Below are positions 3,925 to 63,749 of a stretch of 64,000 bases of DNA, piece by piece. This DNA comes from Minutocellus sp. GHC0000111. Lineage: Eukaryota. The notes under the pieces are model-generated. The model ran no database searches. It was given only the letters and a program-made list of their open reading frames with translations, and had not been told where the DNA came from. The DNA lies in the NCBI GenBank assembly GCA_977018835.1, contig OZ361260.1, forward strand, positions 930,001-994,000, in the 5' to 3' direction. Both the position numbers and the translations under genes were made by a program. How positions within the stretch are numbered: the stretch's first letter is position 1; each line of letters starts with the position of its first letter.

Positions 3925-6150
3925 CTACTGTTCCTCGGGTTTCAGGGATGTGAGGAAAGGTAGAATCCAGTTCTCATCAGCATTGTAGACTTCCTTAAGC
4001 TCCATGCCCTGGTCTCCACAGTCATCGTAGAGCTGATCGATGGAATTCTGGACGGTAGACCTGTACATACTTCCGGAGTTATCAACGAACAGGCCAATGA
4101 ACTGGACATTGTTGGAGGTGTAACCGTCCAATTCACAATATGAGGCCCAATCCTCGATAGCCCCGTTACGATCGATGCCGTACTTAATAACTTTGTTGCC
4201 GTCGTTGAGGAAGTTGTCGGGAAGGGAGAGGGGATCGTTGGCTTCATCAGCTGGAATCAGGAGGCAGAACGGACGATAGCGATATTCCTGCCTAAATAGA
4301 TCCCAGAGATCTTCTTGCGTGCATGGAGTATTGCCGTTCCAGTTGTTGCAGTTGAAGTCGTCGTCCTCATCGATAACTGCAACACACGGTGCAAGCAGAT
4401 CCTCATCGAAGCACAGGCAGGAGTAAGGATCGCATTTTTTGCCAACAGCGCAACTGACCTTGGAGCAATCGCATTCAGGATCTTCAACATATGGTTCGTC
4501 CTCATTACAGGGCCATTTGGTTGAGGATCCCACGATAATGAGGTCATCGAAGATGGCATACGGTACGCTTTCAAGATCAAAGACGATCGTCACGTACCCG
4601 TCAGAAGATGAGGATACATCCAGACCAATCATATCGTAGCCCCAATCCAGCTTGAATGGTAGATCCGCGAGATCTGACCCACTTCCTTCACTTCCTTCGA
4701 GATCACCTTCATCGAGGGGCGGCTCACCCCAACCGTTGAAGTCTCCTTCAAGTTCGGGACTGTCCAAAACAGACACGTGGACTTTTGGTTTGTACAAACG
4801 GTTCTCGTAGGTGAATGGACCGCCGCATCCAGGAAGATTTGCAGCGGCGAGACTCATGCCGATGTTGAGGAATGAAAAGTCGTGAGTGTCTAGTGTGAGC
4901 GAAAGCTTGTCTTCTTCTTGATCGGAAAACATGCCGATGGCAAAGTTCCCACCGACGCCTTGAGGGTTTTCGAAAATCGGGTCTCCTTCAGAGTGATCGA
5001 GATTTCTCTGGAGGCCATCGAGATGGACGACCTCGACGGTCTCTTGCTGGTGAAACTTGAAGCCTGATTTAGAGAAAAGAATGTTGATGGCATCATCTCT
5101 AATGTCGGCACCGCCTCCACAACTAGAGAAAACACGACGATTGGGGTCCTCGAAGTCATTTAGGTAGAGGAGACGTTGCATAGGGACACCGGCGTTTTCA
5201 CCACCCCCTGTATCGTCGTTACGACCACTTTGATAGGCAGGGCAGTCCCCTAGATCGAAGCCACACTCTGGCGTCGAATATGCACCGCCATCGCATTCCC
5301 CGTCGCCTAGAAAATCGGGGACCTGAACATGACAATCAGGATATTCAGGGACGATACAATCGCCACCGTCCTTTTGTGGGATGCGAAGAAAGAGAGCAAA
5401 TCAAGCGACATCAGATAAAAAGTAGTAAAGATCCGAAATGAAGAGCATGCGAATTGTGAAGAAGAGCCGAAAGTTTATACGAACACTTACCCAGTCACAC
5501 TGCAAAGTGTTGTGCTCTTCTAGAAGCAAATCACAGCGCCCATCTGAGAGCCAGGATTGCATGGAAACATCGCAGGTGCCATCTGGGTCCGAATCACAGT
5601 CTCCTGCATCCCACCCGCAAGCTTCTGTCGCATATTCACCACCATCGCAGTGGTCGTCGGCCAAGTAAGTAGGGTCGCTCACATGGCAATCGGGGTAATC
5701 ATTGTGGATGCAGTCAGAACCATCCCAATCACAAGCATAAATATTGTACTCTGCCCCATCACATGTACCATCTCCAATCATGGATGGGTCATCAACATGA
5801 CAATCTGGAAGTTCATCAATGATGCAATCGCCTCCATCCCAACCACACTCCTCGACGTTGTAGACACCGCCATCGCATTCGCCATCACCGAGCCAGCTGC
5901 GATCCGGGACGCTACAAGACGCCTGGATGATTGCGGCAGTGGAAAGGTGACGTTCGTCCCTGACGTTCTCGCCTCGCTTCTTGGACATCTCCAAATGCTT
6001 CTCATCGGCTCCACGATTCATCTTCTTCGTCATCATCGCCTTCTTCTTCCTCTCCGCCAGATAATGACCCGTCTCCCCGAGGCGACGTCCAGAAGCAACG
6101 CTCGTCACACCGGCGAGGGCCACCACAAAGGCCACGGTTGAAATCTTCAT
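3925..6150 (-). CDS. Secreted protein with LNR (Lin-12/Notch)-like Cys repeats and a C-terminal vWA-like domain (intron 5371-5490)
   Basis: Signal peptide [14 protein letters not shown]; repeated LGDGxCDGGxYxxxxCxWDGGDC; splicing GTAAG(5490)..AAG(5371) joins to ORF 3925-5181; LFVDNSGSM motif. Confidence 0.8.
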
Positions 6151-8915: not shown

Positions 8916-9194
8916 GTACCGGTAAAACTGTATCCATAGGTCTTCTAGTTCTATCTTAAATGGTTTAGACTTGACTCTAATGCAGAAGAGAGAGGAGAAA
9001 TGTCCGTCTCACCAAAGACGACGCCGGCCCAGAAATCTACGTAGTACGTACGTACAAAACCGGCACATATATGGAAAAGAAGAGAGAACGAGAAGGGAAA
9101 GGGTTAAAAGAGAAAGCTCATAACCCTTTACCTAGGTATTGGTCTGTCTGCCTCTCATTTTTTGAGTTACTCCTTACTTGACCCAATCTCAACC

Positions 9195-9749
9195 ATGACG
9201 GACGCTGAAATCAAGGCCAAGAAGCTCGAGGAATCCGACGACGACGACGTCCCGGATCTCGAGGAGCAGGATGAGGGTGCCGCCGCCGAGGGTGCCGAGG
9301 AGTCGGGCGAGGGCAAGCAGCTCAACCGCGCCGAGAAGAAGGCCCGGAAGATGATGCAGCGCCTCGGCATGCGCCCCGTGTCCGGCGTTGCCCGCGTCAC
9401 TCTCAAGACCGCCGGCAAGGGTGGATACTTCGCCATCGAGGGACCCGATGTCTTCGAGAAGAACGGCACCTACGTCATCTTCGGCGAGGCCCGCCAGGGA
9501 GGTGGCCTCCAGCAGCAGGCCGCCATGCAGCAGGCCAAGGCCGCTGCCGCCCTCCAGGACGATGTGGAGGTCCCCACCGTCGAGGACGCCGGTGATGATG
9601 CCGACGAGGCCGTCGATGACAGCGGCGTCGAGGGCAAGGACATCGAGCTCGTCGTGTCCCAGGCCTCCTGCTCCCGGGCCAAGGCCGTCGCCGCTCTCAA
9701 GGAGAACGACGGCGATCTGGTCAATGCAATCATGTCTCTGACAACGTAA
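9195..9749 (+). CDS. NACA: Nascent polypeptide-associated complex alpha subunit, copy 2
   Basis: Canonical-length NAC + UBA domains; strong C/G-ending codon bias. Confidence 0.95.
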   Translation: MTDAEIKAKKLEESDDDDVPDLEEQDEGAAAEGAEESGEGKQLNRAEKKARKMMQRLGMRPVSGVARVTLKTAGKGGYFAIEGPDVFEKNGTYVIFGEARQGGGLQQQAAMQQAKAAAALQDDVEVPTVEDAGDDADEAVDDSGVEGKDIELVVSQASCSRAKAVAALKENDGDLVNAIMSLTT

Positions 9750-18826: not shown

Positions 18827-19453
18827 AAATGACAATTGGATCTAGCTACTTAGATCTATCTCAGTACTGGTGGATTCCTCTAGAGTTGACTTTAGATCTA
18901 GTTACGTAGGAATATGTACCGGTATGCAGCATGTCAACACACTTGTAGCGCAAAACATGCAGCATTCGTACCAGTATTTTCTGGAGTTGCAAAATTCTTA
19001 AAATGGAGAAATGAACTTTTGAGAGCACTTTGGTCGGAAAGACTGACACACGTCATCTACGACTACGTAGACCCTACGCTAAAATGCCTGAGCACGCGTT
19101 CAATGCGTGTTTAGTGCTGATGCGGTGATGTTCTAGTGGCTAACGCAAGCTCAGGGAGGGGGTACCCATCTGCGCGCATAGAGATAGTTTGCTAGATTTC
19201 CTTTGTTCCGGCACGTAGTCAGATTCGTGTGGATAGTTAGTTGCGCTACAGCAGATGATGATGATGGCCCGGGTGCCCCGATGAGTTGTTGAATGCGAGC
19301 AGAAGCATGTTGTTGTTAAAGTCTAAGTAACGGGTGTGTTTTTATCATGTGTAGATCTACATGTAGTGGTTTTAGAAGGCAGTTTCAACACCATGGCACT
19401 TCGTGCTAGTTTTCTTTTGGAAACACTATGGCACTTCGTGCTGCTATGTTCGC

Positions 19454-19655
19454 TGTTGATGCCGTGGGATATGTACGTACGTATACATACGTACGGTACG
19501 TACGGTGATCAGACCACTGAGACTCAGTGCCCTCTCCTGACCGTTGATCCATGGGCCAACGACATCTCCGATGGCCCATTTTTCATCTACGTAGGTCCTA
19601 TTAACCTCTACTAGCTATATCTATCTAGCTTAGCTTTAGGACCTCTTACTTAGCA
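19454..19655 (+). repeat. 5' LTR (202 bp)
   Basis: TGTTGATGCC...CTTACTTAGCA, near-identical to 25464-25661. Confidence 0.95.
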
Positions 19656-19947
19656 GACCTACGTGATACATCTTTTCCACCCGTGCTCGCCCCATTTCGG
19701 TTCGCACCTCACCGGTTTGTGTCTTGGGTTCTCACTCGTCACGCAAGAAAAACCGACACATCTTCAATCGGCCAAAACGACCGTTTCTTTCGACAATATT
19801 GGAACGACGATCCAATCCCTTCCCCGAAAGTCCTGACCAGATCGACCCATCCAATCGATCACACTTCTCTGGATCGAACCTTCTGTCGATCACACGTCTC
19901 GCAGCAACACCGCCGTGCTGCCTGTCTTCGCTGACTGAAACACCAGC

Positions 19948-21230
19948 ATGAATCCCGACGCAGTTTTTGGCCAACCTCTCGGCGCAGCGCCGATTCTCCC
20001 CACCAAGTTAATCACACGTATGAATGACCCAGGACAACCTCCCCAACGCGAGCGTGTTGCCAAAGCGCTCAAGGAACTTCAACAAGCGGCGGCCAGCATT
20101 CCAGCAGGGGGCACAATGACCACAACCTCGGCCATTTGGGCCTCGTCGTCAGCGATGCCGAATGCACCACCAAAAGTGACGGCCGACCACATGTGCCTCC
20201 GGCAAATCCTGGCCCCAGCCCCACCATTCCCGCCGTGGCCAATCTAGACCAACGCGATCGTGCAATCCGGCGACATCACATCGAAAAGGGCCACTACAAC
20301 TTGTACGAGCAAGTCAACACGGCGCTCAAGAATCTCCTCCTCGACTCGATCGACGCCGTCTACATCAATCATCTCGAAGATGACATGCTCGGTTTCCAGC
20401 CAGTCACCATCCGCCAAATCATCGACAGCATCACCGATCGCTACTTGAAATTCAACGAGACTCAGAAGGAGGAATTAGAGAAGCAGCTCGAGAAGCAGCA
20501 CGACGGGGGACCCATCGACACCCACATCGCCATGTTCAACAAAGTCTTCAAGGCGTTTGAAACGGCCGGCGAACCCTTCACCAACAAGCAAAAGGTCTCC
20601 AAGTTCTACCGCTCCGTGCGCAGGTTCTCATTGGCAAAGAAGGCATGCGAGGACTGGGACGACAGACCGGAGGCCGAACGCACGTGGGCCAACATGCAGT
20701 CAGACTTCCGCGATTGGTGTGATAAGAAGATGGCCAATGCCACCACCGAAGCGGCAGGATATCATGGCGCGAATTTGGCCTCATCGGCCTCGGACGATCC
20801 ATTTCTTTCTCGAGCCGATCTCCTTTTGGCTGATACCACCGAAGCCCTCAAGACCAACCAAGCCATGATGGCGAACCTCGCCAAAAAGAGCAACGAGAAG
20901 GATGATACCATTGCCAAACTTCGCCAAGAAATAGCTTCACTCAAGGCCGAGAACCGCGTTCTGCGTGAGGGACGCAACCATGCTGGTGGCAGTGGAGGCT
21001 ACCGCGGCGGTGGCCAGCAGAACGGCGCCGGCCACTTCCCAGGCCAAGGTCCTAACCTCAACCGCCAGGAGAAGCGGGAACTGCAGTCGATCCTCCCCAG
21101 AGGCCATTATTGCCACACGTGCGGCTATTCGTCCAACCACCCCAGCTTTGAATGCACTTGCAAAGGGCCCAACCACGTTGATAACGCCACCAAGTACAAT
21201 CCTTGCGGTGGTAGCTCGCGTCGTAACTGA
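19948..21230 (+). CDS. gag: Copia gag (1-nt frameshift in G run at ~20107-20111)
   Basis: ASIP..GHLGLVV motif split across two frames; C-terminal YCHTCGY..H.SFEC knuckle-like motif. Confidence 0.8.
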
Positions 21231-24200
21231 GCGGGAGGGACGGTGGACATTAATCAGCATAAAATAGAGGATAGTGTGTCTGAATCCACCTCCTCCCCGC
21301 CTTCGTTAGCTTTTCTTACGTCAAAATGCAAACCTCCAACTCAAGAGCCAATCGTCCTCGCAGCAGATACTGGAACGACGGGACATTTTGTCCAGAAGCC
21401 CCAATGCCTATCGTACGATGGCCCTATTTTCAACGTCCAACAGACAGCAATTCCTGTCAGCGTCACCCTTCCGGATAATAGCACAATGACGAACACCCAC
21501 GAGGCCACGCTTCGCCTCCCTGGGGTTTCCCCATCGGCTAGCAAGGCCTATATTTTCAATAATATGGCATCATCGCTCCTGTCGATTGGGCAGCTGTGTG
21601 ACGATGGATGCATTGCCACTTTCGATAAGGATTCGGTAGTCATCGCCAAGGACAATACCACCGTCATTTTGCAAGGTAAACGAGACCCCTCAACGAAATT
21701 GTGGATGGTAGATCTAAATTGCTCGCCCACCATGTCGCCGCTCCCCGGCCCCAACGTCATCCAACATGCTGCCAACGCCGCAATTGCCCAGGAGACGGTT
21801 CCGGAACGTGTAGCCTTTTTACATTGGTGCGCTGGCAGTCCTCAGCTATCTACCTGGTGCAAATCAATCGATGCGGGATTTTATAGATCTTGGCCAGGCC
21901 TCACATCAAAGCTTGTACGTAAGCACATGCCACAGTCGACACCGATGATTAAAGGTCACTTAGACCAGCAGCGCAAGAACATCAGGTCGACCAAGCCCAA
22001 ACGGTCGATGGCTACGCCAAAGTCTCTCCCTGGGGTGGACGAAACCGAGCAGGATCTCCACCCGGCACAACACCAACTGCGCACCAACTATGTCTTTGCT
22101 GATTGTCATGACATAACGGGCCAGATCTTCTCAGATCAGCCCGGCCGTTTCTTGGTATCGTCTATTTCTGGCCACCAGTACATAATGGTCTATGACTATG
22201 ACTCCAACAGCATCTTGGCCGAACCAATGAAAAGCCGATCGGGAACGGAAATGCGCCGAGCGTACCAAACTATTTTCGAATACCTCTCCAAGCGAGGATT
22301 TCGCCCAAAATTGCAACGATTGGATAATGAAGTGAGTCGAGAGCTGAAGGAGTTCATGGAAGAAAAGGATGTAGATTTTCAATTGACCCCAACGCACTCC
22401 CACCGCCGAAATGCGGCCGAACGAGCCATTCGAACCTTTAAGAATCATTTCATTGCGATTCTCTGTGGTACCGATCCCGACTTTCCCCTCATCTTGTGGG
22501 ATAAATTGCTGGAGCAGGCGGTAATGACCCTCAATTTCCTGAGAGCATCCCGAGTCAACCCTCGACTATCAGCGTACGAGCAACTCAATGGCGGCTTTGA
22601 TTTCAATCGCACGCCTCTCGGCCCCCTCGCATGCAAGGTCATCTTTCACGAGATGCCCTCGGCACGCGGCTCTTGGTCCCCGCATGGCGTTGATGGGTAC
22701 TATGTCGGTCCAGCCATGGAACACTACCGGTGTTACAAGGTTTGGATTGAGGAAACTCGGGCGGAACGCACTGGTAACACACTCGTCTGGCTCCCCAAAA
22801 TGATTCCGGTACCCAAAACGTCGTCGGCCGATGCAGCAATAGTCGCAGCTCATGAACTCCTGCACGCTCTACAGAATCCACATCCAGCGGCACCCCTTGC
22901 TCCCCTTCGAGACGAGCATCGTCAAGCTTTAGAAAAGCTCTCCGAGATTTTCAACAGCGTGACCCCAGCAGAATCTGCCACCTCCGCCTCTGATGAGACG
23001 ATGCAGACAACCGCAGCTCCGAGGGTGCTGGAGAACGATGACGACTCCCAACGATTCCGCCTCGGTACCATCGTCGCCAAAGTGTTTGGAGATCGCAATT
23101 ACAAGGGTAGAGTCGTTGCATTTGACAAGAAGTATAAGTACTACAAAATCAAATACGAGGACGACGACGTAGAAGAGATGAACGAGACTGAAGTAGGCCG
23201 TCACCTTGTCTCCAACCCCAACGCTCCGTTACCTCAGCCCCAGCAACCTCCGAGGGTGGCAAAATCCTCCACATATGATGCAGCCACCACTAAAAGCCGT
23301 CGATCACGTCGATCCAACGCGCCACCTCGCTCGTCAGTTTCTTCCAACTACTACAATCCTTTGGCTGCAGCAGACGAGCCCAACGGCGACGATGATGATA
23401 ATCATGACGACGATGCAACCGTCGTAACATCCAATCAAAGTTCCAATGCCCCCACCTCCCGTCGGCAACGTAAACGCAAGTCTCCAACGATCGACACCAC
23501 TCCAACATTACCAGCTCCAGCAAAATCGACAAGCAAGTCCAAACCATCGACCGCCAAACCACCTCGACGACGATCATACCGTCAGCGAGGGTACATTCCA
23601 CATCGGAACCCTCCCCCACGGCCATCATCTCGTCGTAGTACCCACCACGTGGCCAACATGGCAGCTTTCTCGCCTTTACCAAACCTCCAACACTTTGCTA
23701 ACGCCGTCGTCCATCCCGATACTGGTGCAATGCTTGAATACCGCGACCTCCTCAAAACGAACATGAGGGACCAATTCATTCAAGCAAACACCGATGAAAT
23801 TGGACGGCTAACGGACGGCCGAGTTGGAAACAGTGCTAGCATTCCCTCCAACACAATGGCTTTCGTCCACTGGTCCGAACTACCTCGGGGGGAAAAAGCC
23901 ACATACCTCCGCATTGTCGCCGACTATCGCTCCCATAAACCAAATCCCAATCGAGTTCGATGGACTGCAGGAGGCGACAAAATTCATTACCCTGGTACAG
24001 TCTCGACCCCGACCGCTGAAATGTTGACTGCAAAGTTACTTTTCAACAGCGTCATCTCTACAGACAACGCTCGTTTCATGGGAATTGATATCAGTGACTT
24101 CTATCTCAATAGCACCATGCCAGAGCCAGAATGGATGTGGGCGCCAGTAGCTCTCATCCCCGACGAAGTCATGGAAGCCTACGACCTCCATGACAAAGTA

Positions 24201-25415
24201 AAGAATGGTCGAGTATTGGTCAGAATCAATGGCGGAATGCATGGATTACCCCAGGCAGGGTGCCTAGCCTACAATCAACTTGTCAAGCATCTCAAACCCC
24301 ATGGCTATTTCCCTTGCAAGCGTACTGCCGGCCTTTGGAGGCACAAAACCCGCCCAATTACCTTTTGCCTAACCGTTGACGATTTTGGAGTAAAGCATGT
24401 CGGGAAAGAGCATGCAGACCATCTCATTCAGGCCCTCAACTCCAAGTATAAGATCACTACCGATTGGGAAGGCCGACTTTATTGTGGCATTCAACTCGAG
24501 TGGAACTACGAGGCCAAATGGGTGGATCTATCTATGCCTAACTGCGTCAAGGAGATGCGCCACAAGTTCCAACACGACCGCCCCTCACGGCCCGAGCATG
24601 CGCCATATCGATGGAATCTTCCGACGCATGGCCCGGGACCCCAGCTGCCAGAACCGGAAGACGACTCACCACCACTCGACGCCAAAGGCATCAACGAAAT
24701 TCAACAGGTGGTGGGCAGCTCCTTGTACTATGGTCGAGCAATTGATTCAACAATTTTACCGGCGCTCAACAGCATCTCAGCGGAACAATCCAAAGCTACC
24801 GAGCGCACTCGACAAGATGCCAAGAAGCTTCTAGATTACCTTGCAACCCATCCCGACGCAGTCATTCGACACGTCAAGTCAGACATGATCCTACATGTGC
24901 ATAGCGACGCCTCCTGCTTGTCAGCCCCGAAATCAAGAAGCAAGCTCGGAGGGTGCTTCTACCTAAGCTCCCGACCTAAGGACCCGCACCGCCAGCCTGA
25001 CTCAAGTGATCCCATGCCACCAATGAATGGAGCCATCCTCGTCAATGCCAATATCATCAAGCATGTAATGTCCTCAGCCGCTGAAGCCGAATTGGGAGGA
25101 CTGTTTTTCAACATGAAAGATGCAGCACCAATCCGGGCAGCACTAGAAGAAATGGGTCACCCGCAGCCCCCTACTGCTATCGTCGTTGACAACTCTACTA
25201 CAGCATCTGGAATCGCCAATAAAACCGTCAAGCAAAGACGGACTAAGGCTATGGACATGAGATTCTACTGGGTCCAAGATCGCACAGAGCAACGACAATT
25301 CCAGGTGTGCTGGCGGAAAGGAGCGCAAAATTTGGCCGATTATTTTACAAAGCACCATCCCGCCCGCTACCATGTCGACATGCGACCAGTCTACTTACAT
25401 GTGGATTCCAATTAG
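21231..25415 (+). CDS. pol: Copia pol polyprotein (protease, integrase, Tudor-like insert, RT, RNase H)
   Basis: ADTGTTGHF protease; SDQPGRF/RLDNE/NAAERAIRTFKNHF integrase; LTVDDFGVK RT; HSDAS/SSAAEAE/NLADYFTKHH RNase H. Confidence 0.95.
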   Translation, partial: AGGTVDINQHKIEDSVSESTSSPPSLAFLTSKCKPPTQEPIVLAADTGTTGHFVQKPQCLSYDGPIFNVQQTAIPVSVTLPDNSTMTNTHEATLRLPGVSPSASKAYIFNNMASSLLSIGQLCDDGCIATFDKDSVVIAKDNTTVILQGKRDPSTKLWMVDLNCSPTMSPLPGPNVIQHAANAAIAQETVPERVAFLHWCAGSPQLSTWCKSIDAGFYRSWPGLTSKLVRKHMPQSTPMIKGHLDQQRKNIRSTKPKRSMATPKSLPGVDETEQDLHPAQHQLRTNYVFADCHDITGQIFSDQPGRFLVSSISGHQYIMVYDYDSNSILAEPMKSRSGTEMRRAYQTIFEYLSKRGFRPKLQRLDNEVSRELKEFMEEKDVDFQLTPTHSHRRNAAERAIRTFKNHFIAILCGTDPDFPLILWDKLLEQAVMTLNFLRASRVNPRLSAYEQLNGGFDFNRTPLGPLACKVIFHEMPSARGSWSPHGVDGYYVGPAMEHYRCYKVWIEETRAERTGNTLVWLPKMIPVPKTSSADAAIVAAHELLHALQNPHPAAPLAPLRDEHRQALEKLSEIFNSVTPAESATSASDETMQTTAAPRVLENDDDSQRFRLGTIVAKVFGDRNYKGRVVAFDKKYKYYKIKYEDDDVEEMNETEVGRHLVSNPNAPLPQPQQPPRVAKSSTYDAATTKSRRSRRSNAPPRSSVSSNYYNPLAAADEPNGDDDDNHDDDATVVTSNQSSNAPTSRRQRKRKSPTIDTTPTLPAPAKSTSKSKPSTAKPPRRRSYRQRGYIPHRNPPPRPSSRRSTHHVANMAAFSPLPNLQHFANAVVHPDTGAMLEYRDLLKTNMRDQFIQANTDEIGRLTDGRVGNSASIPSNTMAFVHWSELPRGEKATYLRIVADYRSHKPNPNRVRWTAGGDKIHYPGTVSTPTAEMLTAKLLFNSVISTDNARFMGIDISDFYLNSTMPEPEWMWAPVALIPDEVMEAYDLHDKVKNGRVLVRINGGMHGLPQAGCLAYNQLVKHLKPHGYFPCKRTAGLWRHKTRPITFCLTVDDFGVKHVGKEHADHLIQALNSKYKITTDWEGRLYCGIQLEWNYEAKWVDLSMPNCVKEMRHKFQHDRPSRPEHAPYRWNLPTHGPGPQLPEPEDDSPPLDAKGINEIQQVVGSSLYYGRAIDSTILPALNSISAEQSKATERTRQDAKKLLDYLATHPDAVIRHVKSDMILHVHSDASCLSAPKSRSKLGGCFYLSSRPKDPHRQPDSSDPMPPMNGAILVNANIIKHVMSSAAEAELGGLFFNMKDAAPIRAALEEMGHPQPPTAIVVDNSTTASGIANKTVKQRRTKAMDMRFYWVQDRTEQRQFQVCWRKGAQNLADYFTKHHPARYHVDMRPVYLHVDSN

Positions 25416-25463
25416 GACTCTACATGTAGATTCAATGGCACTAGTCATTGATCTGCGAGGGTG

Positions 25464-25661
25464 TGTTGATGCCGTGGGATACGTACGTACGTATACATAC
25501 GTACGGTACGTACGGTGATCAGACCACTGAGACTCAGTGCCCTCTCCTGACCGTTGATCCATGGGCCAACGACATCTCCAATGGCCCATTTTTCATCTAC
25601 GTAGGTCCTATTAACCTCTACTAGCTATATCTATCTAGCTTAGCTTTAGGACCTCTTAGCA
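25464..25661 (+). repeat. 3' LTR (198 bp)
   Basis: Differs from the 5' LTR by 2 transitions and a 4-bp indel. Confidence 0.95.
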
Positions 25662-25699
25662 TTCGCGTGTCTTTACGCGGGGAGCACTTTGGTTGTGGA

Positions 25700-26500
25700 A
25701 TGGAAGCGATGCGCTGCTGGACGTTTTGATGTGCGCTGGTTGGCCGTTTGACGTGCTGGTTGTTGGAAGACATGCTGCTGCTGCGGCGGCGCACCAATCC
25801 GATTGCACTCTTGAATAGTTACAATTAGTTGAAAAATATTTAAAGATTCACATAGAGGAGTGGTGTAGCAGCATGTCAAAAATGAATGACATGCTTAAAG
25901 AAAATGAAATGATGTTGACACAAGATCCACTACAACAATTGCGCGTCGTGTTCGGTCTCCATTTGTCCCGCCTGTTATTTGGTGGTTCGCGGTTGATGAG
26001 GTTTGATGTGCTGCCGCTGCCGCTGTGGTGTGATTGCTGCTGCAGTTTGACATGCTGGACGTTTTTAGACATGCTGGTCTGTGTTGATGTGCTGCTGGCG
26101 GTTTGATCAGCTGCCGCTATGGATGAGGTTTGATGTGCTGCGGGTGGTCTGATGTGCTTCGGCTTGACATGCTGGACGGTTTGACATGCTGCCGCGGTTG
26201 ATGAGGTTTGATGTGCTGCCGCTGCCGCTGTGGTTTGATTAATGCTGCGGCTTGACATGCTGGACGTTTTTAGACATGCTGGTCCATGCTTGGCGTTTTG
26301 ATGTGCTGGTCGATTTCTTGATATTTGATGACATGCGGGTAGAATTGATTTGCTGCGGTTCGATACGCTGAACGTTTTGACATGCTGCGGGTGGTGAGTA
26401 TGGTTTGATGTGCCGCTGCGGTTTGATTGCTGCTGCGGCTTGACATGCTGGTTGTTTTGACATGCTGCGGATTTGATGAGGCCGATTTGACATGCTGGCG
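25700..26500. repeat. Degenerate tandem repeat array (core TTTGA-[TGTG/CATG/CGTG]-CTG), TpA-depleted
   Basis: Many irregularly spaced copies of ttgatgtgctg / ttgacatgctg. Confidence 0.8.
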
Positions 26501-26592
26501 CGTGACTCATTGAATCTGAAGCACTCCCTTTTAAAATACAAAAAGTCAAATCCAAACTTTCCCCACGACGGGGAGTACCTGCTTCCACTTGT

Positions 26593-26667
26593 GAGATCTT
26601 TGTTCCGAATGCTGGCTTGCTTTCACTTCACTTTTGAGATCTTTGTTCCGAATGCTGGCTTGCTTTC
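26593..26667. repeat. 32-bp direct repeat
   Basis: GAGATCTTTGTTCCGAATGCTGGCTTGCTTTC at 26593 and 26636. Confidence 0.85.
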
Positions 26668-27149
26668 TAAAATCTGAAACACGATCTGCCTGCCACAGCC
26701 GTTCAAGTTGGCATCGCCTGTGTTTTGCAGATGTTTCTACTACGATGTAACACGAGAGAGAGCAAGCAGCGCCAAAATCGACGGAAATAAGCGTGGAACA
26801 TGTGTTTCTTCGTCGACCTAGTTTATTGCAACAAAAAAACTCACACCCTCTTATTGCTAGATGGGCCGCGCCCACCCTCCAAGCGGTGACGACTGTCTGT
26901 CTTAGAGGGCACCCGGGCCCACGTAGCCACGTCGCATGTGAATGTCGCAAGTGACGTTGCGCCGTTGCGCCTTTCACTCACAACCCACTCGCCACATCAT
27001 CAAAACTGGCGGATGCCATCTGCTCTCAACCTTCAATAGCCTGACTTTGCCGCCGATTGCCCATTCTGACTCCTTCGTCCTTCTTCTTCATCCCAAAACC
27101 ACATTGGAGATACTGGTCCTACTAGCCGCTACGCAGTACCTCGTGGACC

Positions 27150-29765
27150 ATGTCGCCTCCAAGATATGGGAGCTCCGAGCATGTCGTCGCCGACGAGGGC
27201 ATTGATCAGCAGAGGCCTCGATTTCATGTCGCCGTGCCAGCCTCCCAAAAACAAAGACCACGACGAGACACAAACGCAAATGCCGAGAAGAACCGATCAC
27301 ACACAAGCAGCTCAGGTACATCGTCAGTGACCACCAGCCGCAGCTTCAACAGCAGCGAAAGCCGGCACAGCAGCCACGAGAGCTTCAGCGTTAGGAGCGA
27401 AGGAAGAATAGTAGGTAGGGGCGGTACCACTCGTGGCGGCCGTGTCCGTGGCAGGCCGTCCTCGTCAATTACATCATCGACAGCACCAAACATTGATGGG
27501 GACGAAGTCATCCGACGACGCCAGGAGCGCAAGGCACGGTCGGCTAGACTGCAATCGGACCTAGACGATCGGCAACACCATCGGCGGTCGTCGAATAACA
27601 ATCATGGAGACCAAAAATCATCGTCAGAGCGGGGTCATCCTCGCTCAGCACAGATTCCCCTTCGTGTCGATGAACATGCCAGTATCTTAGCAGACATAAC
27701 AGGCGGCGATACCAAGGAAAGAGTGAGAACTAGGAGTGCTAGTAGTAGCAAGAGCAGGCGCCGCTCGTCCATGGAACACATGGAACATGTTCCTACCTGT
27801 ACTCACGACATTCGGAGCAGAAGCAGAAGCGCGTCCCGTCAACGATCAATGGAACACGCTCCTCATGCTTCCTCGGTCAACTCAGCTACACAAACGAAGA
27901 CATCGCTTGCAACGGGCAGAGGCCGGCATCATTCGATGGAATATACTTCGAGGGAAAAGTATCATGCACGTGAAACTGCCCCCTCTCGGTCGACTACCGG
28001 TACTGCCAGCAGACGCCGTGCATCCATGGAGCATCACTTTTCTTGGAGCAATGCCCAAAAGGACACATCTGATATCTGGAGCGCATCATCCTCTCGGTCC
28101 GTTCGTGCTCATACCAAAGAATTGAGGCAAGAACACGGAAATAGTGACGACGTTCAAAGGCGATCTTCCAGCAGCACAAGCAGTGGCAATAGCCGTGTCC
28201 ATCTGCGCGCCCGTCGATCGACGTCGATGGGTCATGGAACTTTGTGCGAACAGCCCGGTGCGAATCACACTGGGATTGAACCCACACCTCCGTCTGAGGC
28301 ATCAAGCAGATACATACGAGAAGGTGCCAACGACGACACTTCCAAAAACACCCCAGGCACATCTAGTAGCGAGAATGGCCCTGGAAGACGACGACATTCC
28401 ATGGGCCATCACCGAAGTGGCCATCCCTCTTCGTCTATGACGGCACCACCTGACTCCGTTCCTATAGGGAACGAACAGTCTCAGCCTGAAAGTGAAAATA
28501 GTTCTAGCAGCAGTCGAATGCTACAGGTCCTTCGTAGGGCGTCGATGCAACACAGCATGTCATTTCGTCGACTATCTATCAGCAACCATCCACCGCCGGC
28601 TGTCAAGGAGGAGGACACAAGCCAGAAGGCCGAGCGCCGAGACAGCATTAATAGCACGTCCAGCTTCCTTTCCCTCAAGGAGGAGATTCTGCCCCCTCGA
28701 ACTTTGCGGCACGATCTAAACTCCAGTTTCCGACGTGCGTCCCTGGAATCGGAACAATGCGAAGTCCCTCCTCCATCGGCCCCGCCGCAGCGCAATCGCA
28801 CGTGGAGCGAGAATATTTCATCAGGTGGAGCCATCTTGTCAATTCTCGGGCAAGGATTTCGCCAAGAGACCGAGGCAACCGAAGACAATAGCGACGATAT
28901 ATCTGTTGCAAGCGCTAGAAGCACCAACACTTCTTCCTTGCCATCTCGCAAGAGTTCTATCTTGTCTGGCTTTATATCCAATCTCGATAAAGAAGAGGAA
29001 GCGCCGTCTTCATCCACGTCATGGCTCAGGAAGTCGAACTTCGTGTCTCACGGTGAGAAGGATGCCGACGTAGCGGTCAAGCTGGCCACGGCGCGGAAAC
29101 TAGCCGACACACTCATTGAGACCAACACCATGCTGTGCTCACAGTGGTTCCAGGGGAAGCGCAATCCGGAGGCCGATTCTCTTTCTCGTGACACCGATCT
29201 CTCTGATGCTGACCTCACGAAATTGCTTCTGTCATCTCCCGAATGTCAGCTTCCCTCAAATTTCAGGATTGCACCACTACCCAACGAGATCACTTCCTGG
29301 ATTGTCTCGCAGGCGCGGACGCTGCCCGTCAGGAAGCAGTTACAACGGCCACTGCCGAGAAGCACGCTCTCGCGTGGAGCCGCTGGACTGAGTTCCTGCA
29401 GCTCATCGGGACCGGGGACGACGTCTTCCTCGACAAGGTGTCACCCCGAGACCGAACAGTCATTCTCGGCGCCTTTGCCCACGCCGTCCGACAGGCCAGC
29501 TTTTCGGGGCCAAAGTTTTCGCGACTGGCTGCGTCGACAGTCCGAGACACCGTCTCACATGCATGCTCGTCCTTCCGGCACAACCAGCGCAGGGACCCAG
29601 GGAAAGACGACATCGGCCAGCCTTCATTCCTTCTACAGCGGCAGTTCCGAGGACACAGCCAGTCCGACCCGGCCGAGCGGCCGGAGAAGGCGATCACCTG
29701 CCGGCTCCTCCGAGAGATCGCCTCCGTCAGGGAAACGGAAGAGGACCGTGCAGTCGGGCAACTAG
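27150..29765 (+). CDS. Chimeric ORF: Ser/Arg-rich low-complexity protein fused in frame to the RNase H C-terminus of a YR retroelement
   Basis: Repeated RRxSMEH motifs up to ~29000, then SWLRKSNF...SQWFQGKRNPEADSLSRD (DIRS-type RNase H end). Confidence 0.6.
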   Translation: MSPPRYGSSEHVVADEGIDQQRPRFHVAVPASQKQRPRRDTNANAEKNRSHTSSSGTSSVTTSRSFNSSESRHSSHESFSVRSEGRIVGRGGTTRGGRVRGRPSSSITSSTAPNIDGDEVIRRRQERKARSARLQSDLDDRQHHRRSSNNNHGDQKSSSERGHPRSAQIPLRVDEHASILADITGGDTKERVRTRSASSSKSRRRSSMEHMEHVPTCTHDIRSRSRSASRQRSMEHAPHASSVNSATQTKTSLATGRGRHHSMEYTSREKYHARETAPSRSTTGTASRRRASMEHHFSWSNAQKDTSDIWSASSSRSVRAHTKELRQEHGNSDDVQRRSSSSTSSGNSRVHLRARRSTSMGHGTLCEQPGANHTGIEPTPPSEASSRYIREGANDDTSKNTPGTSSSENGPGRRRHSMGHHRSGHPSSSMTAPPDSVPIGNEQSQPESENSSSSSRMLQVLRRASMQHSMSFRRLSISNHPPPAVKEEDTSQKAERRDSINSTSSFLSLKEEILPPRTLRHDLNSSFRRASLESEQCEVPPPSAPPQRNRTWSENISSGGAILSILGQGFRQETEATEDNSDDISVASARSTNTSSLPSRKSSILSGFISNLDKEEEAPSSSTSWLRKSNFVSHGEKDADVAVKLATARKLADTLIETNTMLCSQWFQGKRNPEADSLSRDTDLSDADLTKLLLSSPECQLPSNFRIAPLPNEITSWIVSQARTLPVRKQLQRPLPRSTLSRGAAGLSSCSSSGPGTTSSSTRCHPETEQSFSAPLPTPSDRPAFRGQSFRDWLRRQSETPSHMHARPSGTTSAGTQGKTTSASLHSFYSGSSEDTASPTRPSGRRRRSPAGSSERSPPSGKRKRTVQSGN

Positions 29766-30998
29766 CAGCCGTCGGCGCCTTCTTCTTCGCGATGAGGTCT
29801 TGCGAATGCTCCAGAGTCAGCGGGGTGAGCGCAGGACCAAGCTGCTCCGCCTCCGCAATATCCAGTTCTACCGCGGCCGACGGCGCATGTGTCACAACGA
29901 CCGGTCCCTCCTCTCAGCAGACTCTGTCTCCGTCACCTTTGAGTTCCAGAAGAACGACGAGCGTGACGTCACGATTACGCAACACTGCACCCACGACGCC
30001 ACCCTCTGCCCAGTTCGAGCTTGGGCTGCCCTGGTGAAACGAGTCCTAGGGTACCCTAGTACCAACAGCGATACGCCGGTAAATGCCTTCGTGGTCAACG
30101 GCGTATTAAAATACATTCCTGCCACCCGAATAGTTGACAAGATCCGAGCGTCGGCCACAGTGATTGGAGAGGACGTCCTGGGCTGCCATCCCTCTGAATT
30201 CGGATCACACTCCATTCGCAGCGGAGCAGCAATGGCAATGTGTCTAAATGATGTTCCCACGTACACAATCATGCTGGTAGGGCGGTGGTCCAGTGACGCC
30301 TTCCTCAAGTACATCCGTCGCCAGGTCCAAGAATTTACATCCGGAGTCTCCACACGCATGATCCAACAACGAGGTAGGTTCCTTCTTCAACGTGCCCCAC
30401 GCACACTCGACGAGCCATCGCGAAGACCCAAGGACCGACCCCAAATTGCCGCCAATCCTTTGCCGGCATCAACAGTATTGGCCGAAATGCCGGCTTCGGG
30501 ACTCCAATGCCCCCCTTCGCCCTGTTCACCTAAGCACGACACACATTATTGGCCGATCTGTGCTACGGAAAGGAGGAGGGGGAGAGGGACCTCACCCTCT
30601 AAGAAGTTTCATTTACCGCCAATGCCAGCTCCAGTTCACGTAGTTTTAAACTGCATTTCATGTTCTACTAAGTTGCATAGAGTTGGGAGAATCAGCGGAG
30701 GGAGGTACTGTGTTCGATGTATCATCGTTGTGGGCACCGCACGGTGGGGATGAGCTGGCGACGGTGGTTAGCAGCAGGCACTAAAACTGCATTCCTGTAG
30801 TGCCCCCAGTTTTTCTGCTGACCACCACCTTCGCCTCCTCTCGTCTCAACTGACCAAGCCACAACCATCTGCGATTGCTGCCGTTGCAATTGCTAAGTCA
30901 GCTTACAGTACCGGCTCCCAGAGCCTGTCTCTCTCTCTCTCAGTAGTTAGTTAGTTTTAAATTCCCTCAAACCCGTCTAAGAAGTTTCATTTACCGCC
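29005..30998 (+). mobile_element. 5'-truncated tyrosine-recombinase retrotransposon (DIRS/Ngaro-like)
   Basis: RNase H tail overlapping the YR ORF; 23-bp direct repeat TCTAAGAAGTTTCATTTACCGCC at 30598 and 30976. Confidence 0.8.
29243..30530 (+). pseudogene. Tyrosine recombinase of the YR retroelement, frameshifted at ~29823 and ~30365 (end approximate)
   Basis: AFFFAMRSCE, FEFQKND, LCPVRAW, HSIRSGAAMAM and GRWSSDAFLKYIR catalytic residues spread over two frames. Confidence 0.85.
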
Positions 30999-31109
30999 TC
31001 GCCTCGCGATCGCAGGCAGGGCGGCTGCCGCTCTTATCTCGACTCGTTCGACTCGACTCGACTGTAGCGAAAATGCAATGGGGATAACCTCCACCCACAA
31101 CCATGTACA

Positions 31110-62153: not shown

Positions 62154-63115
62154 ATGAAAGCAGACAAGAACCGGCCCCCACCAATTCCATCGAAAGGAAG
62201 GAGAGGTAGGCAAGGCAAAACCAAACGGTGCCACCAGGACGAGGACTGCTGTGGGGGCGCTGGGCTGATGACCCTGGCTGCATCCGAGGCAACACCCAAC
62301 GACGTCCTCTTTGGCCGAGGTTGCAGCCAATCGCCTGGGAATGTGGCCTTCCGCCAGCTCATTGCCGAGAGGGGCGACGATTACCTCCGGATATTACGGC
62401 GGCTATGCTTGCCTCTCAGAGTTTTCATGACTTTCTTTCTACCATCGCTAAACCCACCAGGGATAGTGGACAACAAGTCAGCACGCGAGGCGTCGCTCTT
62501 CCTCCCACTTCGAACAGCGTTATTGCCATCGCCAGTTCTGGTACCAGCGCCGGTGCCTTTCCTATCGCAGACCCACCACATTTCAATCCAGACGCCGGGG
62601 TCTCTTCTGGCAACGCTACACAACACCCTCCTTTAGCACATGCAGACCTATCAGCCATGCGCCAACAATTTATCATTAGTTCTGCTGGCGAGACTGGGCC
62701 TGTAACTGATGCTTCATGTATTCCAACCATGGGCGGCGTTGCTGCGGGATATCAACTCCCGTACACCATGCTAGCACCGTCGTTGATGTCGTCAATCCAC
62801 CAAGCAACACATGCTAGCAGCAATACACCATCGTCTATGACTACGACAGCAGCAGCATCGCTTCCTTTCCCTTTTGCCAATCCTACTGACGCTCAGGCCA
62901 CCACATACAGCAGCAGCACTTCACGACTATCAAATCTGCCAACCTCTTTGTCCTCCGGTCATTCTGCAACCACGCATGCAGGTCCATCGTCGATTGCCAG
63001 CGCTTCGCAGATGCCAACACAGGCCCAGTGCCCTCCTCCCCGGCCACTTGAGGCCGGTGCTGCTGCTGGTGACGACGACTTTCAGAGAGTTCTTGGCTGG
63101 CTCCAACAACAATGA
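62154..63115 (+). pseudogene. DUF6824-like fragment followed by out-of-frame Ser/Thr/Ala-rich tail
   Basis: TPNDVLFGRG..PGNVAFRQLI motif; the second half of the domain is absent; tail lies in ORF 62228-63115. Confidence 0.5.
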
Positions 63116-63277
63116 CGATCTACACATGTACCGGTGGTATAATGCGTGTATGTAACTAAAATTCTATAGCACTTACATGTACACGTAGATCTAGACGTTT
63201 TACCGAGTTGTCGCGTTGAATATGAATATAGATCTATGTAAATTTGCACATGCTACCGGTAGCTGATACATGTAGTA

Positions 63278-63455
63278 CAGTCCGTCCCCGAAAATAAGCA
63301 TATCCATTCTGGAGCTGAGGTCTCAGTATGCTTATTTTGGAATAAGGCATTTTAACACGAATGAGATGCCAATTCTATCTTAGAATAAGCAATAGGCCCA
63401 AAATCTGAGGTCTCAAACAAGCATATTGAATATGCTTATTTTCGGGGACCGACTG
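63278..63455. mobile_element. Tc1/mariner(pogo)-type MITE, 178 bp
   Basis: 26-bp TIRs CAGTC(C/G)GTCCCCGAAAATAAGCATAT with one mismatch; TA on both flanks. Confidence 0.9.
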
Positions 63456-63749
63456 TACCGGTACATTAATTATCGATCGTTCGTCGTCCTCGTCTTGCTT
63501 CTCGCCAACATAAGTCTGGCAGTCACTTTCGAATTACGGTAGATCTGCCAACCAACAATCCTGGTGCTGCCTGGCGAGATATGTAATAATTTTGGTCCGA
63601 TTGACACCGGCACCATTTCCTACGTGAAATTATGATGTGTGCTTTTGCTAATGCAAGTGCGGCAGCCTACTTTCGGATGCATAGGGTTCTATTCTCTTCC
63701 ACTAGAGCTACATGTAGCTACTAGATCTAGACGGGACGACGACACCCTG

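Follow-up and report, generated by a model that had tools for sequence, protein, structure and literature searches.

Recurrent, strand-symmetric A:T>G:C changes at TpA in copies of two unrelated retroelements of a diatom-like stramenopile

We analysed a 64,000-nucleotide stretch of DNA from Minutocellus sp. GHC0000111 (contig OZ361260.1, positions 930,001 to 994,000; hereafter the window, to whose numbering all coordinates refer), which carries a Ty1/copia element (Copia) and a fragment of a tyrosine recombinase (YR) retroelement. Copies of these two unrelated retroelements have been altered recurrently by a strand-symmetric, TpA-specific A:T>G:C process. The changes fall in TA far more often than in CA, and in CA more often than in AA or GA, favour a 3' pyrimidine, affect both strands alike, recur among copies and are present in short reads. 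As candidate cause we favour, with a probability of about 60%, a host adenine deaminase of the TadA/ADAT type acting on chromosomal transposon DNA.

Results

Substitution spectrum of the sibling copies

We compared the window elements with their siblings, i.e. fragments of other Copia and YR copies, most of them on megabase-long contigs, probably from the same assembly as the window. Rates are expressed as non-synonymous single-base changes over opportunities. The window codon serves as reference wherever a reference relative concurs; columns in which the two disagree are excluded, as are frameshifted stretches. Among 16 Copia copies, A is replaced by G at 69/576 opportunities when preceded by T (38/147 sites), at 16/1069 when preceded by C (5/273), at 3/894 after A (3/239) and at 1/1178 after G (1/301), with 4/808 for G>A at CpG and 8/17804 for transversions. 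The corresponding figures for 21 YR copies are 71/373 for TA (18/27 sites), 11/1191 for CA, 4/894 for AA and 2/1830 for GA, with 5/1706 at CpG. A>G at TA thus amounts to 12-19%, versus 0.1-1.5% for the other 5' bases, an 8- to 170-fold context-normalised excess over other A contexts; a minority of changes lies on CA, and AA is altered 35-40 times less than TA. The event totals for A>G-type, G>A-type and transversion changes are 89, 9 and 8 for Copia and 88, 6 and 20 for the YR element. A sister subfamily (P0150 and P0152), kept apart, gives 2/122 at TA. The CpA>TpA signature of repeat-induced point mutation (RIP), read as G>A after T, is absent (2/913 and 0/822).

The 3' base also matters. For Copia, changes were found at 35/201 TAC, 23/120 TAT, 10/154 TAG and 1/101 TAA, and for the YR element at 59/228, 11/44, 1/87 and 0/14, respectively. 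Counted by site, 33/79 TAY but 5/68 TAR (Y, pyrimidine; R, purine) have changed (p=1e-6), and the preference persists at sites outside tyrosine codons (17/132 versus 6/162). Since the favoured TAC and TAT are the two Tyr codons, Tyr is the visible victim. On the plus strand 44/228 TAY (19%) and on the minus strand 14/93 (15%) are altered; A>G and T>C are therefore both present, as the original prediction had noted, and the similar rates on the two strands exclude one-strand RNA editing.

Copies differ in whether a given Tyr column has become His or Cys, for instance at pol residues 1056, 1073, 1166, 1167 and 1214 and at YR positions 29807 and 30052. Moreover, 95 of 165 pairs of derived alleles are incompatible with a single rooted tree, so either the changes recur or the copies recombine. 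Several Tyr>His/Cys changes at conserved columns were also observed in more distant pol homologues (P0216, P0274 and P0289; 52-54% identity) and in a gag relative (P0575), all of them from other datasets, so the signature is not confined to the two families of the window. Among 79 metagenome Copia loci (44-63% identity) none has two or more conserved Tyr>His/Cys changes, and the 30 His/Cys found in 1479 cells lie mostly in one column among the rows listed; these loci are intact-type elements and are uninformative on the absence of the process. Viral contigs scanned with pol gave no match, and the exact LTR (long terminal repeat) pattern was not found in metagenome contigs.

Element anatomy and conserved tyrosines

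The features that the two elements comprise are as follows:
19325..26857 (19325-19453 + 25662-26857), no strand: outer repeat holding the nested Copia, about ten copies by depth
19449-19453 and 25662-25666: target-site duplication TTCGC flanking the Copia, intact
19448-25662: empty-site joint for the Copia, seen in other contigs
19454..19655, plus strand: 5' LTR, Ty1/copia, TG...CA, 23 TpA, extra 4-base tandem duplication near its end
19949..21230, plus strand: gag, frame change near 20105-20110, Tyr>Cys at 20163
21231..25415, plus strand: pol, in the same frame behind the gag stop, Pfam RVT_2 and PTM_DIR17_Tudor
24200..25000, plus strand: reverse transcriptase (RT) stretch studied at the DNA level
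25464..25661, plus strand: 3' LTR
29023..31000, plus strand: YR retroelement, 5'-truncated, RNase H (RH) end and YR, multi-copy

The Copia is complete (19454-25661), with TG...CA LTRs, a target-site duplication and an empty-site joint in other contigs, and the position of the RVT_2 reverse transcriptase in the 3' half of pol agrees with Ty1/copia; its protease, integrase and RNase H we take from their motifs. The gag stop is a TGA with pol directly after it in the same frame (21228-21233), which suggests stop read-through. Between integrase and RT, at 23064-23200, pol carries a PTM/DIR17-like Tudor domain that the nearest relatives have too. Like the CoDi Ty1/copia elements of diatoms as described (PMC2806351), the window Copia has an LTR pair more than 95% identical, TG/CA ends, a target-site duplication, one stop between gag and pol and an RT of the RVT_2 family; unlike them, it is damaged by Tyr>His/Cys changes and a gag frame change. 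This likeness is to descriptions, not to named CoDi sequences.

The YR element, which we presume to be DIRS-like from its motifs, has 514 homologues and no Pfam match, and the copy is truncated when set against the DIRS hallmarks (RT-RNase H plus YR, split or inverted terminal repeats). The nested repeat block (19325-26857) and the YR fragment (29023-31000) are both presence/absence alleles: another allele lacks the outer repeat (joint 19324-26858), and another lacks the YR fragment (joint 29022-31001). The contigs of run X1 have a depth of ~4000-5800 over the Copia and ~2600 over the YR element, against ~80-110 for single-copy DNA, so that both are multi-copy; tens of copies each is a rough reading, depth giving no exact copy number.

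The original prediction named 14 codons in these elements as Tyr turned into His or Cys, and all of them are present at their positions. Homologues confirm 11 of the changes and weakly support a twelfth (29136), whereas two are family residues (20190 and 30184). In pol, the Tyr fraction among 120 homologues is 1.00 at 24240, 0.92 at 24396, 1.00 at 24543, 0.96 at 24627, 0.67 at 24870 (His 0.00), 0.99 at 24915 and 0.58 at 25308 (Cys 0.00), and His or Cys occupies at most 1% of any of these seven columns. In gag, 20163 is Tyr in 105/129 distant homologues and Cys in both closest siblings; 20190 is His in all four nearest relatives covering the site and Phe in 72/132 distant homologues. In the YR element, Tyr is found in 73/92 homologues at 29654, 84/84 at 29807 and 130/143 at 30241; at 29136 just two siblings provide coverage, one reading Cys and the other His. 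Position 30184 counts as a family residue because Cys occurs in 4/4 reference relatives; most distant homologues have Phe.

Conserved tyrosines are hit out of proportion: the window copy has changed 5/19 of them but 3/169 other conserved RT/RH residues (Fisher p=3e-4). Over the copy-variable Tyr columns, the window pol has His or Cys at 10/52; the window YR has them at 7/12 Tyr columns and retains Tyr at 30310, which we presume to be the catalytic one. The gag siblings bear many additional Tyr>Cys/His. Contrary to what had been thought, the reading frames are not all intact, with frame changes in gag near 20105-20110 and in YR near 29822-29830, both at G runs.

Variants at the DNA level

For the RT stretch we drew up a list of variants from contigs of four runs, filtered (7% share, away from contig ends) and incomplete. 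Of its 17 variable positions, 15 represent transitions that fall within 12 TpA sites, a single site having both TG and CA alleles; the other two are one AA>AG and one transversion. Among the variants listed, 12 TpA sites vary versus 0/46 CpG.

At 24870-24871 the window reads CA and Illumina RNA contigs from two studies (X6 and X8) read TG; at 24898-24899 the window has TG and these contigs have CA. A base-calling artefact, named beforehand as what would undo the substitutions, is therefore rejected for them. Over 24450-25000 the X8 contig shows ten differences, all listed, none of which affects the window C at 24627 or its G at 24916 and 24955; it thus retains the window His/Cys codons at 24627, 24915 and 24954. 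At several sites the changed alleles are in the majority in X1 and X4, with C at 24240 making up about two thirds of depth and the altered alleles, both summed, ~80-90% at 24488-24489, 24870-24871 and 24898-24899. The Copia family is hence well eroded, although its observed/expected (o/e) TpA ratio is no lower than elsewhere.

The outer repeat, in which no coding sequence was detected, has TA-versus-TG/CA variants at 26081-26083 and 26285 and a TpA o/e of 0.37 over 25662-26857. Its ends are only loosely inverted, and degenerate tandem units at 25970-26500 switch among TG, CA, CG and TA at their variable positions. Insertions of 3-6 bases relative to other contigs, resembling tandem duplications of adjacent bases, occur in the transposons at 19645, 25195, 29764, 30368 and 30433, three of the five at or beside TA; speculatively, these are possibly scars of staggered nicks in repair.

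LTR pair, patchiness and host DNA

The LTR pair holds 23 (5') and 22 (3') TpA, amounting to 53 TAY strand-sites, and shows no TA difference; it differs by two CG-versus-TG/CA transitions (19472/25482 and 19570/25580) and a 4-base indel. Among the 40 of 187 contig-variant rows listed, LTR TA variants reach at most ~7% of depth in X3 and X4, versus 25-90% at RT sites, though a single X1 contig of low depth shows three TA>TG within 18 bases. A low-depth X1 LTR contig carries five A>G on one strand within 47 bases (25574-25620; three TA, two CA), which hints at processive single-strand deamination. The window copy is patchy: 8/19 Tyr are changed at pol residues 1004-1360 versus 2/30 at 59-984, and 19570-20109 has zero substitutions relative to the X6 RNA contig. 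The LTRs may be shielded; alternatively, an already damaged template gave rise to the window copy, or retrotransposition itself produces part of the damage.

In host DNA, the gene for 6PGD retains 9/9 conserved Tyr, a small control (p~0.1) in a gene under purifying selection. Between the insertions, three of the five transitions listed in single-copy DNA are TA versus TG/CA (27038, 27317 and 27942), the other two being CA versus CG; the three TA alleles may represent spill-over into host DNA.

Other features of the window

The window is eukaryotic, ~52% GC and dense in genes, a protein domain scan of 10 window proteins giving ferrochelatase, TatD, EEP nuclease and 6PGD among others; solved structures were too distant from the ferrochelatase to count. 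We call the source diatom-like because of the look of its genes and because the build of the Copia agrees with published descriptions of CoDi elements (PMC2806351). An inverted, diverged gene pair of 76% DNA identity (1668-2603 and 9108-9749) presumably encodes NAC alpha-like proteins, and a small element at 63275-63458 with inverted ends of 37 bases resembles a miniature inverted-repeat transposable element. A long Ser/Arg-rich open reading frame (ORF) from ~27126 is interrupted by the YR fragment. A 42-base match at 62818 proved a chance similarity inside a Ser/Thr-rich ORF; tblastn with pol and YR homologues gave no match in the window outside the Copia and YR elements, which backs this rejection.

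Discussion

A candidate adenine deaminase

The original prediction proposed a repeat-targeted mutator working by DNA adenine deamination, decay of modified adenine or pol-eta-like synthesis at WA (W, A or T). A TpA-specific, strand-symmetric process is real, whereas the third of these mechanisms is disfavoured. The TadA-derived editor ABE7.10 favours 5'-YAY and disfavours 5'-AAA (PMC10188366), and a natural ADAT2 is able to deaminate A in DNA (PMC10354150). Together with these two activities, the graded context of the changes (TA, then CA, then AA) and their 3' pyrimidine lead us to favour an enzyme of the TadA/ADAT type.

On this proposal, chromosomal DNA that is transiently single-stranded would have its A deaminated to hypoxanthine, which replication would fix as G. 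One change would destroy the TA and leave a poor CA-type target on the opposite strand, so that each site would end as TG or CA. Note that TA>TG and TA>CA changes in TAC and TAT create no stop; hence the damage would surface as Tyr>Cys/His within conserved motifs of RT, RNase H, gag and recombinase, and would disable the copies. Less securely, the process may be episodic or patchy, guided to silenced repeats and largely sparing of LTRs, unless the window copy derives from a damaged template. The TA variants in the outer repeat, which has no detected coding sequence, support chromosomal action.

Several observations weigh against a host deaminase confined to chromosomal transposons. No deaminase was found among the 10 window proteins scanned, and changes show no preference for hairpin loops (Spearman 0.05, n=55; also for n=30) in a crude test on 51-base folds, although amphioxus ADAT2 does prefer them (PMC10354150). 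The erosion is partial: a sliding scan gives no TpA dip over the Copia, where the o/e is 0.53-0.72 versus 0.42-0.89 across the window. Differences at 0/53 TAY strand-sites of the LTR pair have p~0.001 at a rate of 12% and 0.07 at 5%, so damage of the window copy after insertion is unsupported. The spectra derive from amino-acid changes, thus from non-synonymous sites only, in copies that are not independent, and recombination among copies could also have produced the incompatible allele pairs. Finally, restriction to transposons is not established, as the 6PGD control is small and selected and three TA alleles lie in host DNA.

Alternative explanations

We regard it as unlikely that A:T>G:C changes result, with no dedicated editing enzyme, from the decay or mis-replication of a modified base (methyl-adenine or a modified thymine) at the TpA of silenced repeats. 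Such decay would be analogous to that of CpG and would suit a palindromic dinucleotide target and strand symmetry, but the graded YAY context with weak CA changes resembles an enzyme's preference, and symmetric 6-methyladenine (6mA) of unicellular eukaryotes lies at ApT, not TpA.

Slightly less probable still is that the changes arise during retrotransposition, by A-to-I editing of RNA combined with deamination of minus-strand cDNA, with damaged copies mobilised in trans and LTRs identical because they derive from one template. The lack of a TA difference in the LTR pair, the intact target-site duplication, the unsubstituted stretch at 19570-20109, the low share of listed LTR variants and the peak of window-copy damage in RT/RH all suit this origin. 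It nevertheless requires two substrates to be edited at near-equal rates (19% and 15% for the two strands), and it sits poorly with TA variants in a repeat without detected coding sequence, with the three TA>TG inside the LTR of a low-depth X1 contig and with the TAY rate of siblings, which is similar along pol (8/51, 5/46, 39/193 and 6/31) and shows no gradient among them. In Bigelowiella natans, moreover, the signature arises on the chromosome, in single-copy DNA-virus sequence (bioRxiv 10.64898/2026.01.13.699255).

A pol-eta-like polymerase that fills gaps with errors while methylated repeats are being repaired (WA>WG) is a very unlikely cause. WA is a pol-eta hotspot, which takes in A>G at TA on either strand (PMC7884765), and some CpG-type transitions are present. 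Largely refuting it, AA is changed at 3/894 and 4/894 against 69/576 and 71/373 for TA, and falls below CA; transversions are rare (8/17804), and the CpG transitions that would initiate repair are much rarer than the TA changes.

That dead copies have decayed in the ordinary way, or that His/Cys family residues were picked by eye as lost Tyr, is highly improbable. This applies to 2 of the 14 named codons, and some derived alleles are in the majority among copies (C at 24240) while TpA shows no dip, but the excess at TA over other A contexts, the alternation of His and Cys within columns and the changed TA sites outside Tyr codons run counter to it, and the Copia and YR spectra refute it for the bulk of sites. 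An artefact of long-read base-calling or assembly at modified bases, which the probable common assembly of window and megabase-contig siblings and the frame changes at G runs might have suggested, has a negligible chance and is refuted for the substitutions by both alleles in the Illumina RNA contigs and by Tyr>His/Cys in copies on contigs of 1.6-3.7 kb (P0150, P0152 and P0302).

Relation to known systems

The process had been thought possibly undescribed, which is not the case, since the same signature is reported in a 2026 bioRxiv preprint on B. natans (Mettrop et al, 10.64898/2026.01.13.699255). According to its main text, TpA>TpG/CpA hypermutation affects integrated nucleocytoplasmic large DNA virus (NCLDV) and virophage DNA, ~1000-fold above background in two viral regions, arising de novo on chromosomes in mutation-accumulation lines and active in some lines only; an ADAT2 homologue is proposed, not demonstrated, and TpA-poor coding sequences are enriched in RT and DDE domains. 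Shared with the window elements are TpA>TpG/CpA on either strand, mostly A:T>G:C change, a selfish or foreign target and partial erosion of TpA. The two systems differ in that B. natans is a rhizarian with single-copy viral inserts and a measured de novo rate, whereas here multi-copy Copia and YR families of a diatom-like stramenopile are seen through standing variation only. We also measured the 3' pyrimidine preference, the weak CpA changes and the sparing of LTRs; no trinucleotide analysis was noticed in the preprint's main text, from which the words diatom, stramenopile and retrotransposon are absent, while its supplements may hold trinucleotide contexts or transposon examples. New here are thus a second eukaryote lineage, retrotransposon targets, a TAY context by which the class of enzyme is narrowed down, and the apparent sparing of LTRs. 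Our literature searches returned no paper on a TpA signature in diatoms or their transposons.

Fungal RIP, known from ascomycetes and dependent on RID, converts C to T at CpA and so creates TpA and stops. The changes described here resemble it in being dense, dinucleotide-specific transitions on both strands that disable repeats, but they have the opposite polarity, consuming TpA and making no stops.

Similar to ABE7.10, the present process turns A to G in DNA, favouring YAY and disfavouring AA (PMC10188366). The activities of ABE7.10 and of amphioxus ADAT2/3 are engineered, in vitro or heterologous (PMC10188366, PMC10354150). The amphioxus enzyme BjADAT2, with its preference for hairpin loops, also deaminates C (PMC10354150); the present changes show neither a loop preference nor much C>T.

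Significance

With somewhat less than even odds, and hence tentatively, we propose that diatoms have a natural adenine base editor: an enzyme derived from TadA/ADAT, guided to silenced transposons, that would convert TAY to TGY on both strands, disable RT and recombinase genes through their tyrosines and spare LTRs, as part of a defence spread across stramenopiles, alveolates and rhizarians (SAR) and an A:T mirror of fungal RIP.

Since long ORFs and near-identical LTRs survive in damaged copies, annotation would class these as young, active elements, and they also escape TpA indices. In a genome with tens of partly changed copies of two families, context, strand, patchiness and LTR sparing are directly measurable. 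If a host enzyme is responsible, nature would offer a supply of DNA adenine deaminases, most of which have until now come from the engineering of TadA, and the process would constitute a second RIP-like genome defence, of opposite chemistry, in a major phytoplankton group.

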